Under the pieces are notes generated by a model. It was given only the letters and a program-made list of their open reading frames with translations. It searched no databases and had not been told where the DNA came from. Position numbers and translations under genes: made by a program. Source: a virus. From it: 52,991 nt of DNA. Location: positions 1-52,991 of the IMG/VR virus record IMGVR_UViG_3300011896_000001, one strand, 5' to 3'. This document shows positions 9,848 to 50,217 of the stretch, one piece after another. Position 1 is the stretch's first letter. Each line of letters opens with the position of its first letter.

Positions 9848-10249
9848 AAAATATTCCCCTTAAATTTTATCCTTCTAATCAATTGTAAAATAAAACATTA
9901 TTTCTATAAACAAGCAATTAATCTTTTAAATTTCACGTACTATACCTGTTGTGTAAAACCTAATTCAGCAATAAGGCCTATTCTATCCTTCATCCCCTTA
10001 TCCTCTAACCAAGTAAGTAGTAAATCCTATATTTATTCCTCTATCTTAGTGAGTAGATCCCCCGGAAGTTAAACAATCTCATGTTTTTCATCTTTTCTTC
10101 GCAATTAAGCTTGACTGAAGATCTTGAAGGTTTGCATCATGTGGGAACGATTATGGAATACGGCTGGAAGGCAGATTTATCCCCTACTTTGAAAGATCAC
10201 AAAAAAAGTAATCGATCAAAATAGATGGATAAGCGTCTTGTTTTTGCCA

Positions 10250-10540
10250 TGCGGTCACTTATAAGGTATCCGTATGTATAGACCCTGTTCACTCAGCGAT
10301 TTTCACCGCATACATCCTTTTACTATGGCTTGTCCTTGTAATATCGTCCCTACACGACAAACTGAATGTACTCCCTAGCACCTTGATGCTAACGATAACC
10401 ACCGAACCTTTTAGAGAATCGTCCCTGGGTAAGTTCTCACCCGCCCTCACCAGAAGAACAGGATTCCGATGAGGGGTGCTGTTTTTGTAGGCGCATACTC
10501 TGTACCCCCTGCACGACCAACAGCTAGCCACGCACGTAAC
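10250..10540 (-). ncRNA. GC-enriched structured RNA candidate of about 290 nt; identity unknown.
   Basis: No credible ORF. The hairpin GCGGU-GAAA-AUCGC (10296-10309) pairs only on the minus strand. Further stems are CCCTCA/TGAGGG (10444-10475) and GGGUGA-GAAC-UUACCC (10427-10442). The minus-strand 5' end reads GUGCG. Confidence 0.4.
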
Positions 10541-10741
10541 ACGTTCCTCCTATATGTATAGCAGCACGGAATTACGGCTTATCAGTTTTTATTTACGTGG
10601 TATCAGGCAATTCCACGCGAACAAAAAACAAAAAGGCATCCCAAATTCCTAAATGGCCTGCGGATCCACAAGACTTCTAGGTTTAGAGATGCCCGCTATA
10701 TATCTTTTGACTACAAAAAATACAATTCTAGCATTTACTAG

Positions 10742-10770
10742 TTGAATTTTAGTCAAACAATAGATAAAAT
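10742..10770 (+). promoter_or_regulatory. Sigma-A-type promoter: TTGAAT-17-TAAAAT.
   Basis: -35 at 10742-10747, exact 17-nt spacer, -10 at 10765-10770. Confidence 0.6.
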
Positions 10771-10776
10771 GGGTAT

Positions 10777-11070
10777 ATCAAAGAAGCCTCGTGAAAAGGC
10801 ATAGTTGTTTAAGGATAGTGTTGGTGCACTACTTAAACGTAAATACTGTGGGTTAATACAGTTCGTTTCTAGCCAAGTGGTGGTACACTAGCTAGATAAG
10901 TCATTCCCGCTAAAGGTTGGTAGCCGTTAGCATATGGGAGTGGCTTTTTGTTTTGTGTTCATATTCAATTGTCTTGCTCAATCTATTTATGTAGATTTGA
11001 TTTATCAAAATATGTTTTGTTTTGTAGAATGTTGCTTGTTGTGTACTACGTTACAACAAGCTTTTTTGTT
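10777..11070 (+). ncRNA. Candidate non-coding transcript of about 290 nt, from the promoter at 10742 to a strong terminator at 11034-11070.
   Basis: The terminator is gcttgttgt-N10-acaacaagc followed by TTTTTTGTTTG, with a T-run only on the plus strand. Internal stems are TAGTG/CACTA, ACTGT/ACAGT and CTAGC/GCTAG. gttttgttttgt occurs twice. No ORF has an RBS. Confidence 0.5.
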
Positions 11071-11121
11071 TGTAAATGCCCCTATAAGTAGGTTTATACC
11101 ATCTAGTTAACTTAATTGAAG

Positions 11122-11238
11122 GATACAAAGATAGAAAGATACAAAGATACATTTATCCTTAGATACAAAGATACATAGTTTACCTTTGTGTATCTTTAGA
11201 TACAAAGATAAAAAGATAGAAAGATAAAAAGATACATA
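11122..11238. repeat. Phased 8-bp repeat array (GATA[C/G/A]AAA, about 12 units plus one inverted unit); candidate centromere (parS) or iterons.
   Basis: gatacaaa gatagaaa gatacaaa gatacatt tatcctta gatacaaa gatacata ... gatacaaa gataaaaa gatagaaa gataaaaa gatacata, read in register. Confidence 0.8.
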
Positions 11239-11317
11239 AATAAACGTTGATTTTACAAGGTTTTTGTTAAATGTCCTGTACACGTAAAATAGGGGCAATC
11301 TATTAAACATAAAAAAA

Positions 11318-11398
11318 GATACATTTATCCTTTTACTTTTCGTACAATCTCGTGTTATCATCAATTCGAGAATAAAAAGATACAAAGATACATTTATC
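11318..11398. repeat. Two further copies of GATACATTTATCC, with or without a GATACAAA unit, next to the parA promoter region.
   Basis: gatacatttatcc at 11318-11330 and 11386-11398; gatacaaa at 11378-11385. The same 13-mer also occurs at 11146-11158. Confidence 0.7.
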
Positions 11399-11440
11399 CT
11401 TTGTTACAATTATATTACAAATTTAAAAGGAGCGATTCCT

Positions 11441-37505: not shown

Positions 37506-39006
37506 GTAAGTCTTTCATCACATTGACCAAATCCTCATTTGAATTGCTGTCAGCTGACTTTTGCAACGTTTCTCCTAATCCTTTTTGCCAACCGCCTACC
37601 TTACGATGTCTTTCGAGTACTAAAGCAACTGGCTCATTCATTTCTGGAATATCGTAATCGGAGAACTCTTTATTCAACATGTTACCAGCTATATTACGCA
37701 TATCTTGGAATGTTAATCCACCCTTATCTGCAAGCACCTCGATGGTTTTAACCATATCCTCAGTGTTACTAATCTCAGACTTACGTAGGTTCACATATAC
37801 GTGTTTTAACCCATACGGAAGCAGCAGAACATTATTGATAATGAACTCCAAGTTGTTACGTTCTGGTTCAAATACCTGTTCTTCTGTTATTTCACGCACA
37901 GATTCAGCAGTTGCTCTGTTAAAGTCCCGAATATAACCTACATACACATCCGGTAATCGGAATGCTGATTGTACTTTTTGACGTGACTTCTCATCATACT
38001 CAAGGAATAGAGCATCGTTTTGTAGGATATCAGCTAAAGATTTAAGTTCAATATCCACCGGCGTCGGCGTATCCCCTACAATACCTTCCTCAGCGCTTTC
38101 CACTTGTAACAAGAGATATTTATGTTGATTATCCTCACCTTCAACATTCGAAACGTAATCAGTTATGGCTGCTTCACTTTCTTCTGATAAAATCCCATTC
38201 TTCAATAAGATAGCCATTGGAATATGACGCCCTTGTTTGAAATAGCGAAGATTTAATTCTTCTGCCTTCCTAGCACCAACCATGTGAACAACATGCGATA
38301 CCCAACGAGGAATTCCATATGGCCCATTACCAATCTTCAAATGGATGACTTCAGTAGCGTTTTTTTCTCCTAACGAAATTTCGGAAAACTCACCAGTCTC
38401 TTTATTTAAGAAGCGTGGATCGCCAAACTCTTTGAAGTAAGTATCTACTGCTCTTACTCGTTGTACATAGCGGCGGAATACCTTCTTACGCTTAATTTCT
38501 TTTCCATTTATTAAGTACGTTACCTCTTGAGGTTTATTATCCTTACGCGTCACTCTCATGTACTGTGGTAACATATTTATTAATTCAGTAGGTTTTCCTT
38601 CTAAATTCCGAATAACCTCAATATATCCATTGCCAGTCGTCTCTTTATCGTCAATACCCGTTTCGAGAATCTCCTTAAATGGCTTTTCAAAGCTGAATTG
38701 CGGAATAATCTCTGTATCAACTAGTGTCCACTCCGCTTTCATTTCAGGAGTTTCCTTGTCATCCTCTTGTTTATATTTCATTTCATGACCAAATCCAGCT
38801 ATATTACGTTTGTAAGCATCAATGCATTGTCCAAGAATGGTGCTGTTCTCTCTAATCTGCTGTAGGTCTTCTATTCTATAAGGTGGTTCAATAATGTCAT
38901 TTACTGCATACTTCTCTTCTTCGCTCTCTTGCTGACGTGATAGCACCTGAGTGTTTGTTCCTGCCGCCTTAATTACTTTGGCACTAACCTTCCTTTTATT
39001 CGTCAT
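37468..39006 (-). CDS. Portal protein, 512 aa.
   Basis: Called from size and position directly after terL. Confidence 0.8.
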   Translation of the reverse strand: MTNKRKVSAKVIKAAGTNTQVLSRQQESEEEKYAVNDIIEPPYRIEDLQQIRENSTILGQCIDAYKRNIAGFGHEMKYKQEDDKETPEMKAEWTLVDTEIIPQFSFEKPFKEILETGIDDKETTGNGYIEVIRNLEGKPTELINMLPQYMRVTRKDNKPQEVTYLINGKEIKRKKVFRRYVQRVRAVDTYFKEFGDPRFLNKETGEFSEISLGEKNATEVIHLKIGNGPYGIPRWVSHVVHMVGARKAEELNLRYFKQGRHIPMAILLKNGILSEESEAAITDYVSNVEGEDNQHKYLLLQVESAEEGIVGDTPTPVDIELKSLADILQNDALFLEYDEKSRQKVQSAFRLPDVYVGYIRDFNRATAESVREITEEQVFEPERNNLEFIINNVLLLPYGLKHVYVNLRKSEISNTEDMVKTIEVLADKGGLTFQDMRNIAGNMLNKEFSDYDIPEMNEPVALVLERHRKVGGWQKGLGETLQKSADSNSNEDLVNVMKDLRDLLESMQNAED

Positions 39007-40322
39007 TAAGCTGCTTCACCTCTTTTCTTTTTCTTCTTTTTACGTAATCCGTAAATAACTGTATTAACAAAGTATCTCGTTTCGTCCATATGGTGATCAT
39101 TCTCTTTCAACGGCTTATCTTCACCACGTTCTACAGATTTCTCATCCCATATATAAGAAGCGAATTCTTTAAATGTTTCATTGCAGCAGTCATTAAAATA
39201 AATAATGCCCGTGTTAAGTGCAACCCCGACATTCCCAATGCCCTCTTTAACATTATTTCGGGCCTTATATACTTTCCGCTTGTTTCTAACTAATAAAGCT
39301 ATAAATGAAGCAGCAGACGGGTCAACTACTGTACCGCGAATTGGCAAATCTCCTACGAATTTTTCAAAGTCCTCGTAGTATTCCTGATCTGTTTTCTGCT
39401 TCTCTGTTTCTCTACCGCTATAACGGTACTCTTTCACCTTGTACCATACTTCTTTATCTTTTTTGATACATTTCCCCCATAATCCATATACCATAGCATT
39501 CTGTGTACCATAGTCACATGAGACAAAGTATTCAACGTATTCCCTTTCAATTGTAGGGACTTTATGCTTATCCTCATCAAACATATCGAATATAAGTCCG
39601 GAAGCAGCTGCCCAAAGGCCTAATATATATCGTTTGAAGAAGACTCCACTGTACATCTTGTAATAGCGCTGTTTTACTTTTTCGGACAAAGATAAGTTAT
39701 CATCCATCGTAAAGCGAATGTGTAGTAAGTTCTTTTCCTTCGCCTTATCTAGCCATTCTGTTTTAAACCAATGGTACGGCCCACCAGGGTTGCAGTTAAA
39801 CCAGACTTTTGAACCTTCTACAGAACAACGGCCAGTTGCTTGGTTAACAAATGAACGAACCATAAGCACAACTTCATCAAAGAAACATCCCGCTAAAGTA
39901 ATACCTTGTATAAGATCCTGCGACGCTTCATCTTTACCCCCAAAGATATAAAAGAAGTTTGTCACGCCATCTTTAGTAATAGTAAGCATATTCTCACTTC
40001 GATGGTCCTTAACCTTATACCCACGAGACTTAAGCATTTTTTTAAGTGGCGTTATAACGTTACGACGGTGCGAACCAATCGTTTTACCACACATACCAAA
40101 GTTCTCGCCTTCAAATGATTCCATTGCCCACATAACGTAGGATAGAGCCATTGATACAGTTTTACCTGCACGAATAGAACCATCGCAAATAATCCCGTCA
40201 TAATTTTTAACGGGACTGTTAGGCTTCCACCAGGTCAATACCTTCATCTGCTTCTTGGAGAATGGCTTAAATTTGAATGGAGCAGGTTTCTTTTTACGCT
40301 TCGGAATCGTCGTCATGGTCAT
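39006..40322 (-). CDS. terL: Terminase large subunit (PBSX-type), 438 aa.
   Basis: FKFKPFSKKQMKVLTWW..., Walker A DGSIRAGKT, and a C-terminal nuclease region with DHHMDETRY. Confidence 0.9.
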   Translation of the reverse strand: MTMTTIPKRKKKPAPFKFKPFSKKQMKVLTWWKPNSPVKNYDGIICDGSIRAGKTVSMALSYVMWAMESFEGENFGMCGKTIGSHRRNVITPLKKMLKSRGYKVKDHRSENMLTITKDGVTNFFYIFGGKDEASQDLIQGITLAGCFFDEVVLMVRSFVNQATGRCSVEGSKVWFNCNPGGPYHWFKTEWLDKAKEKNLLHIRFTMDDNLSLSEKVKQRYYKMYSGVFFKRYILGLWAAASGLIFDMFDEDKHKVPTIEREYVEYFVSCDYGTQNAMVYGLWGKCIKKDKEVWYKVKEYRYSGRETEKQKTDQEYYEDFEKFVGDLPIRGTVVDPSAASFIALLVRNKRKVYKARNNVKEGIGNVGVALNTGIIYFNDCCNETFKEFASYIWDEKSVERGEDKPLKENDHHMDETRYFVNTVIYGLRKKKKKKRGEAA

Positions 40323-41238
40323 CCCACACTTCCTCTACCTTACCTTCTAGCGCTTCTTTGAAACCATCGTCTTCGTACTCATCACCATCTTCACCTTTAA
40401 TACGAGCAGTGTCAGCTTTAATCTTATCAATTTGAGATTTTTGTACTTCCATCTGCATCTTATGGCGTTCCTCTTCAATTTGTCGCTTGAAGTTGTCAGG
40501 AACTAAGTCGAAGTACTGTGCCAATTTATCCAAGGCTTTCATCTTGTCAGCTAGCTTAATGGAAATACCATCACGCCCTTGTTTCACTTCAGTAATAATC
40601 GAACCATCTACCATATCGGAATCAGCTAGATCAATATAGTTCATCATTCGTGTTTCAGTAATAAACTCCGTCACTTCATTTCCATCTTCATCTACTGATG
40701 TTTTTTCTAATGGTTCTAATTCAACTTCTCTTTGGCCGAAGGTCACATAGTTTGTAATATCAGCAAAAGCAATCTTAATGTACTCTTTAAGCACATCCAT
40801 AGCTTCTACAAATACATTCTCGACTAACTCACCTTTAAGCTCTTTTATATAGGAAGAAACTCGTTCACGCCTTAACAATCGACTAGCCTGTACATGAGCG
40901 CTTTCCTTCGTATACCCACTTTTAAGAGCTGCCTGAGTTCCATTAAAATACTTTACATAATACAAGCAGAAAAGACGCTCCTTCTCACTGAGTTCTTCGT
41001 CTTCTAAGATTGCCTTCAATTTCTTCTTTGTTTTAGGGTTTTCCACTTTGGTAATTACCTTTTTACCAGTGGTAATATTACCGGTAATATTTTCGTCCCA
41101 TTTATCCTTGGATTTCCACTTTCTAACGAGAGAAATACTCTTCCCTAACTCATCAGCGATTTCTTCAATAGGCTTTTCACCCTTTGAATCTTTGTACATC
41201 TCAAACGCTTTATCTCTTTCTACGCTTCGTCTGCTCAC
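40294..41238 (-). CDS. terS: Terminase small subunit (Terminase_2 type with an extra N-terminal HTH), 314 aa.
   Basis: LSEKERLFCLYYVKYFNGTQAALKSGYTKESAHVQASRLLRRERVSSYI. GTG start. Confidence 0.9.
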   Translation of the reverse strand: MSRRSVERDKAFEMYKDSKGEKPIEEIADELGKSISLVRKWKSKDKWDENITGNITTGKKVITKVENPKTKKKLKAILEDEELSEKERLFCLYYVKYFNGTQAALKSGYTKESAHVQASRLLRRERVSSYIKELKGELVENVFVEAMDVLKEYIKIAFADITNYVTFGQREVELEPLEKTSVDEDGNEVTEFITETRMMNYIDLADSDMVDGSIITEVKQGRDGISIKLADKMKALDKLAQYFDLVPDNFKRQIEEERHKMQMEVQKSQIDKIKADTARIKGEDGDEYEDDGFKEALEGKVEEVWDDHDDDSEA

Positions 41239-42849: not shown

Positions 42850-43025
42850 TCGCTGATTACAATTTTAAAAGTAACTTCTATTTCATTACCTAATGCCGGT
42901 TTGCTCACATCTAATAATTTAAAACCAGTATTCAATAATGAATTTTTACATTCCATAAACGTCGCTTGTTCTATGTTATCTGTTGGGTCATAAGTAACAG
43001 TTGTTATCGTTTTTACTTCCATCAT
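42846..43025 (-). CDS. Hypothetical protein, about 59 aa from MMEVKTITT.
   Basis: Track ORF 42846..43082. An AGGAAGGG RBS favours the internal ATGs at 43025 or 43022. Confidence 0.55.
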   Translation of the reverse strand: MMEVKTITTVTYDPTDNIEQATFMECKNSLLNTGFKLLDVSKPALGNEIEVTFKIVISE

Positions 43026-43171
43026 TCCCTTCCTAACCAAATGTCCATTTTGTTCAAATATAAGAATTACAGAACAACACAATTACTCATACATCGGCAT
43101 ATCTGCTACTGTGACTAAACTGGCACACGAATATATGAGGTTTACTATTATGTTGTTGTGTAATTTCTATA

Positions 43172-43206
43172 TAACAAACAAAAAAGCCATCACCGAAGTG
43201 ACAGCT
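43172..43206 (-). terminator. Strong minus-strand intrinsic terminator: AGCUGUCAC-UUCG-GUGAUGGCU followed by U6GUUUGUU.
   Basis: The 9-bp stem includes two G-U pairs that become C-A mismatches on the plus strand, so it is strand-specific. It has a UUCG tetraloop. Confidence 0.8.
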
Positions 43207-44100
43207 CTTTACAAATTATAAAAATATTAAAGGGGATGGGAGAAATCATTCACGAAAGGGGAATTTCGCAATCATTTCAAGGTCAAGATTACTCTCAACC
43301 TTCTCAAAACAACCGATACATACAATGTGACTCAGGTTTTTAGCTCTTTGGCTATCCTGGTTATCGTGTTCGGTTGCTTGGAGAAGGAAAAGACCTTCTC
43401 ATTTATCCTCCGTGGAGTTTGCCAATACTTTGGCTGTCCCGTGACTTCAGGGTGTCACATACCACTTTCCTTATTGGTCAATACATCGGTTGTTGGGAAC
43501 CTTAGCTGACCAAATCGTTTTATACAATGTAATTATATCTAGAGGGAATATGTTTATTCCGTCCCCCTGTTTGAACCTACACAACCTGTAGCGGCACCCA
43601 CTCACTGCACTACTTGTATTGGCTCAAACAAAGAGCGGAACTCTTTGCCTAACGAAAGATGTGAGTAATTCGTTAAAATTAATTGATCATTCGTTCTAAA
43701 TTGATGAAGCAGCTCTGTATTCCTATTAATATTTAGAAACGCGTAATCATCCAATCATGGACCATCACCCCATTTCCATTTTCAAGAACAACATTAACAG
43801 AGAATAAGAGGTACTATGTTCACCATCAACCCAGAGGACATGGCGGTCTCTGAGCTGATTACTAAACACAATAGAAACAGCATGACGAATGCGAGTTATC
43901 TCACACCCGCCACACTGGAATATGTCATTGTAATTAACTCATTGGTCTTTTCGTCTTAACGCGGGTTCTTACCGCCTTGCCCGCCCTACTATGCGGTATA
44001 CGTTACCGTGACATTCTCGCATAAGAACGTTTCACTTATAGGTGTACTAATCCTCTTCGATATGCGGTTGTCAAAGGGCTTGTACATATAATTTATAATT
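43207..44100 (-). ncRNA. ORF-free, GC-enriched structured transcript of about 0.9 kb between arpU and the terminator; identity unknown.
   Basis: There is no credible ORF on either strand. Perfect stems are at 43381-43400 (7 bp), 43629-43647 (7 bp), 43545-43560 (6 bp), 43441-43458, 43832-43851 and 43994-44008. No terminator separates it from arpU. Confidence 0.5.
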
Positions 44101-44150
44101 TTTAGCATTTTATTTAGTCCCCCAAAAAGTTCGCGTTTTGTTCGCTATTT

Positions 44151-44522
44151 TTAAATGATTCCTAGTGCTGTAGCAATCAATTTAACCGCACTCTGCTTCT
44201 TCTCATAGAAATATGTCTTCTTAAGTAGAAGATCATGATAAACATCTGAATCTTTTACTCTCTCGTTTGTCAGGAACTTACGCTCAACGATATTACGCTC
44301 ATCCTCATCTAATAAATTGTTAAGTGCCTTCTCTACCTGCTGCACCTTCCATTTACTCGTATTCCTTGAATCACGCAACTCAGGGAATAAACTGATTCCT
44401 TCCTGCTCCACATCATTACTAAATCTCATCTTGAGTGCTCTGTACTCCTTTAATACGCTTACTACTTCCTTTTGTACTTTTTTATCATCTACAGCCGGTA
44501 ATAAAGTTAATTGTCTCTCCAT
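44151..44522 (-). CDS. arpU: ArpU-family late transcriptional regulator, 123 aa.
   Basis: LPAVDDKKVQKEVVSVLKEYRALK...NLLDEDERNIVERKFL matches the ArpU-family pattern, supported by size. Confidence 0.75.
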   Translation of the reverse strand: MERQLTLLPAVDDKKVQKEVVSVLKEYRALKMRFSNDVEQEGISLFPELRDSRNTSKWKVQQVEKALNNLLDEDERNIVERKFLTNERVKDSDVYHDLLLKKTYFYEKKQSAVKLIATALGII

Positions 44523-49933: not shown

Positions 49934-50128
49934 TCATTGTTCTTCCTCCTCATAATCTGCTAAGATATCTTCTAAACCAATTGCCGTTCCTTCTAATGTG
50001 TGCCACTGTCCACGGTGGAATCCCGCTAACCCCAAGTCACCTTTTTCAAATGCTTCATCCGCTTGTTTCCTGCTCTCAATTGCCGATTCGTGTAAACCTT
50101 TTATAAATTCCTCAATCGCTTCTCTCAT
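49934..50128 (-). CDS. Hypothetical protein, 64 aa.
   Basis: Track ORF. Confidence 0.55.
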   Translation of the reverse strand: MREAIEEFIKGLHESAIESRKQADEAFEKGDLGLAGFHRGQWHTLEGTAIGLEDILADYEEEEQ

Positions 50129-50217
50129 AACTCCCAGCCCCTTTTATCAATTTAAATAATTCCTGCTCACTCATTTCATAAAGCTGACGTCCAGTACTTT
50201 CTTCTTTGTAAACCCCT

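Follow-up and report, generated by a model that had tools for sequence, protein, structure and literature searches.

The virus recorded in IMG/VR as IMGVR_UViG_3300011896_000001 (positions 1 to 52,991, the whole of which is called the window below) raises a simple question: what is encoded by the tract of about one kilobase which separates arpU, the gene of a late regulator, from the genes that follow it on the same strand, and in which no protein gene is apparent? An initial annotation, made from the sequence alone, had proposed a large structured RNA read from the minus strand and ended by its own terminator. The comparative analysis reported here makes it highly probable that the tract belongs to a conserved structured RNA family encoded on the minus strand, and it is most likely a copy of a modular family of 0.5-1.1 kb carried by temperate phages of the Bacillus cereus group. 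Regarding its function, the best explanation, to which a probability of roughly 45% can be given, is that of a modular phage RNA of ~0.9 kb which ends in a RoxS-like module and would act in trans by pairing with ribosome-binding sites.

A homologous tract, likewise unannotated, was found at the same place in more than 100 phages and prophages of the B. cereus group. All 11 GenBank records of related phages show an unannotated gap of 585-1870 nucleotides (nt) at this position and none of them contains a credible protein gene in it, CUBc25 having only short hypothetical open reading frames (ORFs) and phiS58 a single 201-nt glimmer ORF on the opposite strand. The intact protein genes by which the initial annotation proposed to recognize pseudogene debris are thus absent from these 11 records. 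In the window itself, the longest ORF on either strand of 43083-44150 has 60 amino acids and none of ten small ORFs has a match in PHROG, in agreement with the lack of a credible ORF noted at the outset. The G+C enrichment claimed for the tract is real but mild, with 39.5% against a window mean of 36.1 +/- 3.1%, 13.5% of equal-sized windows being equally GC-rich.

BLAST comparison with GenBank phages revealed a mosaic: the 5' third (44101-43752) is 91-96% identical to phages 250, IEBH, LY4 and 0105phi7-2, the middle is variable, and the 3' part is met again in phages of the Cecivirus, Waukeshavirus and Beceayunavirus types. When IMG/VR was scanned for exact copies of a 16-nt seed from the 3' end and of a 15-nt piece of an internal hairpin (T1), at least 119 stretches were obtained in each case, those with the seed belonging mostly to the family of the tract; among the matches listed, the family accounts for ~90 distinct 3' modules and for 105 copies of the 5' module. 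A scan of genomes with a 15-mer gave mostly chance matches, the 5 confirmed members among the 120 listed being all from the B. cereus group, the only group in which the family was encountered among the matches listed. Sequence conservation of the tract is higher than that of the neighbouring genes.

That this conservation concerns an RNA, and one read from the minus strand, is supported by several measures. Folded as a single sequence, the minus-strand RNA 44085-43176 reaches -304.8 kcal/mol (z = -7.0) versus -226.7 kcal/mol (z = -2.8) for the plus strand. An alignment of 69 non-redundant full-length tracts (784-1097 nt) led to an alifold consensus of 154 pairs in 29 helices, and for a 23-sequence subset the alifold energy is -290.7 in the minus sense, -221.1 for the reverse complement and -143 +/- 9.8 for 15 column-shuffled alignments (z = -15). 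G-U cells exceed A-C cells (567 versus 79), which is the direction predicted if the minus strand is the one transcribed. When pairs were counted region by region, 97.6% of cells are paired in hairpins T1 and H2 together (14 of 38 pairs changed on both sides; slid controls 32-48%), 95% in domain D (11 of 24; 31-49%) and 92.4% in the 3' core, counted over 54 sequences in alignment A3 (23 pairs changed on both sides; 42-51%). In 500 shuffles, the percentage of paired cells, the number of compensatory pairs and the covariation score were never equalled in any of the three regions. For T1 and H2 and for the 3' core this holds for all five measures considered, for domain D for four of the five, the number of further pair types being reached in 94 of 500. 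Compensatory changes occur in H2, D, E, Pc, Pd and the terminal terminator. The compensatory changes among relatives, the strand asymmetry and the recurrence of the tract in more than 100 phages all speak for the large structured RNA proposed in the initial annotation.

When all column pairs were scanned, these local helices came up again, with spans of at most 96 nt, and no pseudoknot, long-range helix or closing helix was supported, so that the RNA has the appearance of locally folded domains arranged in a chain. Between relatives, whole domains are inserted, swapped or deleted, as exemplified by expansions of hairpin Pb, three versions of the RsaE-type hairpin and alternative F domains, while the 5' domain including T1 is missing from the Waukesha and L025/L041 classes. 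This exchange of domains suggests a string of semi-independent structured modules rather than one compact fold.

The module which gives the best clue to function is the last one. The final ~100 nt (43180-43280, minus strand) resemble a diverged copy of the Firmicute small RNA (sRNA) RsaE/RoxS. Compared with the Rfam model RF01820, the 101 nt from 43280 to 43180 (minus strand) obtain 46.3 bits with E = 4.8e-6, the alignment extending over model positions 1-112. Relatives reach 47.4 and 51.1 bits, and the match covers the full model in three module types (46-51 bits). The features shared with RsaE/RoxS are a 5' hairpin with a CCCC loop, a single-stranded seed and a Rho-independent terminator, the very ones by which the sRNA is defined in B. 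subtilis (PMC4409812). The hairpin, Pe (43278-43242), displays the loop UUCCCCU, which corresponds to a CCCC motif like that of C-rich region 1 (CRR1). It is followed by the seed UCCCAUCCCCUUU (43241-43229), with the arrangement CRR2-AU-CRR3, and the slightly longer UUUCUCCCAUCCCCUUU at 43246-43229 is identical to the RF01820 consensus over 18 nt, including the CCC-AU-CCCC spacing of CRR2 and CRR3, and unpaired in both the minimum free energy (MFE) and the centroid folds. Waukesha-type copies carry in addition UCACA...ACAU...GAACGUGAA, which is common to RsaE/RoxS.

The module is closed by the intrinsic terminator already pointed out in the initial annotation, which is therefore the 3' end of the RsaE-like module. 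Its existence is confirmed: the stem spans 43208-43183 around a UUCG loop and includes the two G-U pairs, it is followed by a U-tract on no other strand than the minus strand, and it shows 7 compensatory pairs in relatives. A terminator scan predicted, on the minus strand, this one (43210-43181, followed by UUUUUUGUUU) and a second within the tract (43917-43878, followed by UUUCUAUUGU).

The start and timing of transcription, any processing, the targets and the action in trans itself are inferred in what follows. Transcription would start near 44083, downstream of a promoter-like element and a direct repeat adjoining arpU, with read-through from arpU as an alternative, and would stop at the intrinsic terminator (43208-43176). 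The transcript would fold in the order of a 5' domain closed by T1, H2, a G-rich strand, H3, D, E, F, Pa to Pd and the RsaE-like end. Its C-rich seed and CCCC loop, together with loops of domain D in most relatives, would pair with G-rich Shine-Dalgarno (SD) regions of host mRNAs from the RoxS regulon (central and redox metabolism), of phage mRNAs or of both, thereby blocking translation and altering mRNA stability. A precedent is provided by B. subtilis RoxS, in which CRR3 pairs with the SD sequence of ppnKB and blocks 30S binding, and which is processed by RNase Y (PMC4409812). In the phage RNA, the long upstream scaffold could govern stability, processing and accessibility of the seed, and the terminator would also insulate the downstream genes.

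A series of observations weighs against this reading. The tract does not reach the gathering score of RF01820 (79, against the 46-51 bits found here). The commonest variant of the family (type B) has, in place of the CCCC hairpin, another hairpin whose loops are not C-rich, and in a minority of relatives the seed itself is changed, for instance to CUUCCCCUUUAGG or UCCUAUCCC. The window contains 9 complements of the seed versus 3.8 expected, with no convincing target among them. Pairing of the seed with the ribosome-binding site of the next gene was considered and rejected: only 8% of loci exceed their own background, the window not among them, and a 9-nt perfect complement (AAGGGGAUG) is present in four relatives. 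An sRNA of 100 nt would, moreover, leave the conservation of 800 nt of upstream structure unexplained, the promoter-like element of the window is weak with a poor -35, and a conserved G-rich strand within the RNA could sequester the seed. The module differs in setting from RsaE/RoxS, a free-standing gene of ~110 nt with a regulated promoter of its own (ResD, Rex or SrrAB): it is phage-borne, forms the 3' end of a structured RNA of ~0.9 kb, has no conserved promoter directly before it, and the outer stem of its hairpin 1 is shortened. A candidate promoter at 43298-43271 was discarded, since its sequence is that of the covarying hairpin Pd and relatives do not keep the -10, and the module is continuous with the conserved structure upstream. 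The best candidate target within the phage is AAGGGGCTGGGAGT (50130-50143, minus strand), located in the SD region of a 64-amino-acid ORF (49934-50128, minus strand) and complementary to the seed at 12 of 14 positions.

The structure upstream of the RsaE-like module can be described from its 5' end. The 5' domain (43918-44083, minus strand), which shows 91-96% identity in the closest GenBank phages, consists of several short helices, three of which (44077-44073/44056-44052, 44008-44004/43998-43994 and 43984-43980/43965-43961) have 2 compensatory pairs each; it matches no Rfam family of any kind. Hairpin T1 with its U-rich tail (43864-43917, minus strand) pairs 43917-43900 with 43895-43878 over 18 base pairs (bp), six of them G-U, and is followed by UUUCUAUU. 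It thus resembles an internal terminator, specific for the minus strand because of its G-U content. In 20 diverse copies, 98.9% of its cells are paired; 11 of the 18 pairs are invariant, and in 6 others a single partner changes without loss of pairing (GU to AU, UA to UG). The initial annotation, according to which no terminator lies between the tract and arpU, had overlooked this second terminator-like hairpin inside the tract (43917-43878).

Hairpin H2 (43814-43871, minus strand; 43871-43862/43823-43814 and 43858-43849/43835-43826, ~20 bp) has 14 of 20 pairs changed on both sides and 95-98% of cells paired. It precedes a G-rich, SD-like single strand, AAUGGAAAUGGGGUGAUGGU (43761-43780, minus strand), conserved across module classes and partly complementary to the seed, and hairpin H3, UCCA-UGAU-UGGA (43750-43761, minus strand), in which the stem covaries (UCCA/UGGA, UUCA/UGAA, UUUA/UAAA, GCUCA/UGAGU and GUUC/GAAC in relatives) and the UGAU loop is kept. 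A mini-ORF in this segment (SD followed by AUG AUU GRN UGA, ~43772-43745), considered as a stabilizer through ribosome loading, was rejected because its AUG is lost in several relatives and because the segment is a hairpin with a covarying stem.

After a variable linker (43649-43749, minus strand) that aligns poorly between relatives comes domain D (43558-43648, minus strand), whose long helix (43633-43615/43583-43565) is accompanied by a basal hairpin (43648-43641/43635-43628) and topped by an apex (43614-43584). The scan of all column pairs retrieved 19 bp of this domain with 10 compensatory pairs. In most relatives the apex bears additional C-rich motifs, such as UUCCCC and CCUCCUCUCCAUCCCCUU, which would provide a single RNA with 3-5 potential anti-SD seeds; in the window the apex is G-rich instead. 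Hairpin E (43541-43568, minus strand), formed by AGGGGGA, the loop CGGAAUAAACAUAU and UCCCUCU, occurs in relatives with at least 5 different stems, each of 7-10 bp, around a conserved loop beginning YGGAAnAAA; its 5' arm overlaps the base of D, so that E and helix D are alternatives. Domain F (43424-43540, minus strand), which includes GGUCA...UGACC (43511-43476) and a helix listed in the initial annotation (43441-43458), is the least well supported part of the RNA. It is present in a subset of relatives and in the MFE fold, GGCU..GGCC against GGUU..AACC being seen by eye.

The upstream half of the 3' core (43279-43423, minus strand) comprises hairpin Pa (43417-43408, with a UNCG-type loop), hairpin Pb (43400-43381), helix Pc (43384-43371/43315-43302, called the long-range helix) and hairpin Pd (43302-43279). 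Here GAGAAG, CUUCUCC, GGAGAAGG and the UUCUCC of the seed could form mutually exclusive pairings. The six short perfect helices listed in the initial annotation are all present. Four correspond to covarying helices of the relatives, namely Pb (43381-43400), the basal hairpin of D (43629-43647), the upper part of H2 (43832-43851) and a helix within the 5' domain (43994-44008).

Two relatives illustrate the remodelling of the 3' core. In L130, an expansion of Pb is inserted between GAGAAATGG and CTTGCTCTTCTCC and contains a T-arm-like GAGGGTTCGATTCCCTC between the complementary CTAAATCAA and TTGATTTAG; ARAGORN detected no tRNA in this expansion. In L169 (IMG/VR 2519899781_000002), nothing is left of the sequence that otherwise separates the seed (UUUCUCCCAU) from Pb, whose 3' arm is CUUCUCCCAG; this looks like a recombination between two copies of CUUCUCCCA that fused the seed to Pb. 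No tRNA was found by ARAGORN in the window or in 10 relatives, and tRNA or tRNA-like content of the tract was accordingly dismissed.

The alternative that competes most seriously with a trans-acting RNA concerns the position of the tract, and is best considered with its flanks. The gene which precedes it on the minus strand (44151-44522, stop codon 44153-44151) was correctly identified as arpU, since 44154-44522 (minus strand) scores 59.5 bits against TIGR01637 (ArpU family; NCBIfam cut-off 43.1) and the product matches PHROG 248, a transcriptional activator (E = 3.6e-25). Surrounding genes are all on the minus strand. On the other side, the next gene most likely starts at ATG 43025, preceded by an SD sequence at 43027-43034, and the non-coding span is therefore 43026-44150. 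Small ORFs follow on the minus strand, then terS (40294-41238) and an ORF (39006-40322) similar to genes annotated as large terminase in related phages.

Directly after the arpU stop codon, the direct repeat GCGAAC-N5-GCGAAC (44129-44145, minus strand) is the only repeat of its kind in the window (chance expectation 0.03) and represents a possible regulator-binding site. At the same position, relatives have 2-4 direct repeats of other sequences, e.g. CGGATAAA, CCGACAAAA and GCAGAGAAA. A promoter-like stretch (44085-44120, minus strand) follows, with a -10-like TATATG at 44090-44085 and then the conserved start GTACAAGCCC. In relatives, TTGATA, TTGAAA or TTGCAA and, 17-18 nt away, TTAATG or TATAGG are found at a fixed distance from ACAAGCCC, where sequence conservation across phages starts. 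The 5' end of the RNA is thus probably located near 44083-44079, as judged from this putative transcription start, and repeats and promoter-like element together suggest a regulated promoter starting near 44083. Of the two possibilities left by the initial annotation, a 3' untranslated region (UTR) of arpU or an independent RNA, a plain UTR is argued against by these elements, while read-through from arpU is still possible.

Over 111 loci, the same-strand ORF-free stretch before the seed is typically 450-1150 nt long. The gene before the unit is ArpU-like at 46 loci, an Xpf-like sigma factor at 14 and, at 7, a small protein that weakly matches sigma-70 region 4; elsewhere a methylase or a small ORF of varying identity (some being spurious calls inside the tract) takes this place. 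The unit therefore follows late regulators of three kinds and also other genes, and at the loci whose 5' flank was inspected it comes with the repeats and the promoter-like element, also behind these other genes.

From this placement, it is conceivable, although on balance improbable, that the tract is the first 0.9 kb of a late operon and acts in cis as its leader, by antitermination (in the manner of HK022 put, EAR or lambda Q/PR'-tR') or by attenuation. The late promoter would then directly follow arpU, and RNA polymerase would be halted at T1 and at the terminal terminator unless the RNA or a bound factor confers resistance. In favour of such a leader are the location of the unit directly after late regulators of three families, the sole GCGAAC-type direct-repeat site of the phage just before the RNA, and two terminator-like hairpins in series, of which T1 is nearly invariant. 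In Waukesha-type phages, furthermore, the SD sequence and ATG of the next gene come ~12 nt after the U-tract of the terminator; a promoter does not fit into this distance, and read-through is therefore needed there. Against it, Rfam matches only the RsaE-like end and hence recognizes no curated antitermination or leader RNA. Put-like antitermination elements are poorly covered by covariance models. No conserved alternative pairing that would act as antiterminator for T1 was found, the candidate CCCGCG/GGCGGG being lost in PfNC7401, and the 5' domain with T1 is the very part absent from the Waukesha and L025/L041 classes. Many relatives also have a promoter-like element of their own past the terminator. 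Among 100 distinct contexts in relatives, the post-terminator sequence is heterogeneous, with a TGTCGAAW motif (...TTCTGTCGAATAGATAGAG...) in 34, the hairpin-capable TTGTAAACYRG...GTTCCYRGTTTAGAG in 16 and an extended -10, TGnTAWAAT, in 14. These recurrent elements may represent promoters of late genes or of morons, or additional elements of RNA. A cis-acting leader and a trans-acting RNA can coexist, the latter being compatible with the former as a by-product.

In the window, the spacer to the next gene (43026-43179, minus strand) contains a conserved motif (43187-43157), a ~90-nt insertion and the SD sequence (43034-43027). Its two conserved blocks are ~10 nt apart in phages 250, PfNC7401 and CUBc25 and ~95 nt apart here. 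The insertion (43066-43164) is flanked by the inverted repeats ATTACACAACAACA (43164-43151) and TGTGTTGTTCTGTAAT (43081-43066) and may be a miniature mobile element.

The G-rich strand at 43780-43761 offers other ways of reading the same RNA. It is complementary to the seed at ~10 of 12 positions, and in the alifold consensus its GGGG is joined to the CCCC at 43235-43232, with 93% of cells paired; as both sides are invariant, this pairing shows no covariation. The strand might serve as an anti-seed, a decoy or a stabilizer. A bolder proposal, to be regarded as speculative, combines it with the seed in a class of kilobase-sized modular riboregulators: mimicry of the RoxS seed and a G-rich anti-seed, acting as sponge or self-mask, would be switched on at the late junction and commandeer the host sRNA network of redox metabolism and the tricarboxylic acid cycle, with GAGAAG, CUUCUCC, GGAGAAGG and UUCUCC forming a switch by which the seed is uncovered or concealed, and read-through into the packaging genes perhaps being gated.

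Alternatively, the RNA would be a mere decoy or sponge, its G-rich strand or C-rich loops titrating host RoxS, the 30S subunit (through its anti-SD sequence) or an RNA-binding protein, which seems distinctly unlikely. The conservation of the G-rich strand across module classes, its match to a RoxS-type seed and the several C-rich motifs per molecule in most relatives are in line with such a role, and B. subtilis is reported to have a sponge of RoxS, RosA, with G-rich sites (PMC8216469). Conversely, the invariance of both partners deprives the pairing of any covariation showing that it matters, any SD-like sequence would give the same complementarity, and the domain D apex of the window is without C-rich loops.

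It is even less likely that the RNA is an ornate one with a biochemical or architectural role of its own, to which the RsaE-like tail would be incidental. The initial annotation had been reminded of ROOL and GOLLD, and part of the likeness stands: size class (0.5-1.1 kb), prophage or phage context and the lack of an associated ORF (PMC5737381). Conserved loops on covarying stems (YGGAAnAAA in E, UGAU in H3) and a sequence conservation above that of the neighbouring genes could be taken in the same sense. The covariance search recommended in the initial annotation did not bear this out. Rfam 15 was searched over the whole window at gathering thresholds and at E <= 10 on 42900-44300, 43860-44100 and 43300-43880: ROOL, GOLLD, HEARO, OLE, raiA and group I and II introns had no match in the window, even at E <= 10 on the tract, and these models had none at the gathering threshold in 15 relatives. 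Unlike ROOL and GOLLD, the RNA also lacks an adjacent tRNA and a supported long-range architecture, no covariation-supported long-range helix, multi-stem junction or pseudoknot of the kind expected of large ornate RNAs being found in the scan of all column pairs. The swapping, insertion and deletion of whole domains would, in addition, be unusual for a compact fold with catalytic activity or for one that builds a cage.

Pseudogene debris, a passive arpU 3' UTR or a DNA element (cos/pac site, origin, regulatory region) is essentially excluded by double compensatory substitutions, the excess of G-U over A-C and a minus strand that folds much better than the plus strand, all the more as 0 of 11 phage records have a credible gene in the tract, its small ORFs lack PHROG matches and the unit occurs after genes other than arpU, even if the tract lies ~1.9 kb upstream of terS, where packaging signals can occur.

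The family appears to be new, Rfam 15 holding only its RsaE-like tail, below threshold, and the 3' end found in two relatives. In the latter, PfNC7401 (L004, 2938-3000, minus strand) and L101 (7649-7711, minus strand), the terminal hairpin is a full match to DUF3800-VIII (RF03075), with 60-62 bits against a gathering score of 40.2; Rfam thus already holds one alternative 3' module of the family. The copy in the window differs by its ordinary UUCG terminator and has no RF03075 match. This motif has been described solely as associated with DUF3800 genes (PMC5737381); a DUF3800 protein partner was looked for among the next ORFs of PfNC7401 and none was found. In the full texts searched, which cover few subscription journals, no description of a phage-borne RsaE/RoxS or of an arpU-adjacent non-coding RNA in Bacillus phages was found, and the genome paper of phage 0105phi7-2 contains nothing on the RNA of this tract.

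The trans-acting RNA favoured here resembles known systems in its overall arrangement, which can be likened to that of StxS and lambda 6S RNA, terminated transcripts beside a late regulator, the former doubling as an sRNA. StxS is the terminated PR' leader of Stx phages and acts as a trans-acting sRNA (PMC7547250). Common to these RNAs and the tract are a non-coding nature, a location directly after a late regulator gene and an intrinsic terminator ahead of the late genes. In contrast, StxS and 6S are short, whereas the RNA described here is 0.5-1.1 kb long and elaborately folded, and their regulators are Q antiterminators instead of ArpU- or sigma-type activators. Lambda 6S RNA measures roughly 200 nt. 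Another parallel is RNAIII of Staphylococcus aureus, a long multi-hairpin regulatory RNA that uses several C-rich loops as seeds against SD regions, is chromosomal, stands under quorum-sensing control and encodes delta-haemolysin. Most relatives of the tract similarly have 3-5 C-rich motifs distributed over domain D and the 3' module. The two RNAs share no sequence or model similarity, and that of the phages is without ORF and phage-borne.

Elsewhere in the window, the sole Rfam match at the gathering threshold is a full-length Pistol ribozyme (RF02679; 2954-3031, minus strand; 59.3 bits against 34.5, E = 2.4e-8). A second ORF-poor stretch (~9850-11440, with ORFs of at most 92 amino acids) includes the interval 10250-10540, which the initial annotation had connected to the tract by a shared motif. 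This connection did not hold: GGCGGGTGNGAGA occurs once in the window (43899-43911), the other tract having only GGCGGGTGAGAA, and what the two have in common is merely GGCGGGTG with GAGA or GAGAA, i.e. 8-12 nt, blastn-short giving no further similarity. The stretch ~9850-11440 has no Rfam match at the gathering threshold and no similarity to the tract at 43-44 kb.

Regulatory RNAs of phages are known mostly from Escherichia coli prophages and, to our knowledge, almost nothing comparable exists in Gram-positive phages. The B. cereus group includes B. anthracis and B. thuringiensis. In the phages of this group, the tract belongs to a widespread RNA family with more than 100 copies, located at the switch from early to late genes and, one sub-module aside, missing from Rfam 15 and from the literature searched. 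It fills an unexplained gap of ~1 kb in the annotation of more than 100 phages and prophages, and its domain swapping, which is like the mosaicism of protein genes, represents an unusual mode of RNA evolution. If the 3' module truly mimics RoxS/RsaE, these phages would have their own version of an sRNA conserved in the host and would use it to redirect central metabolism, doing with an RNA what auxiliary metabolic genes do with proteins.

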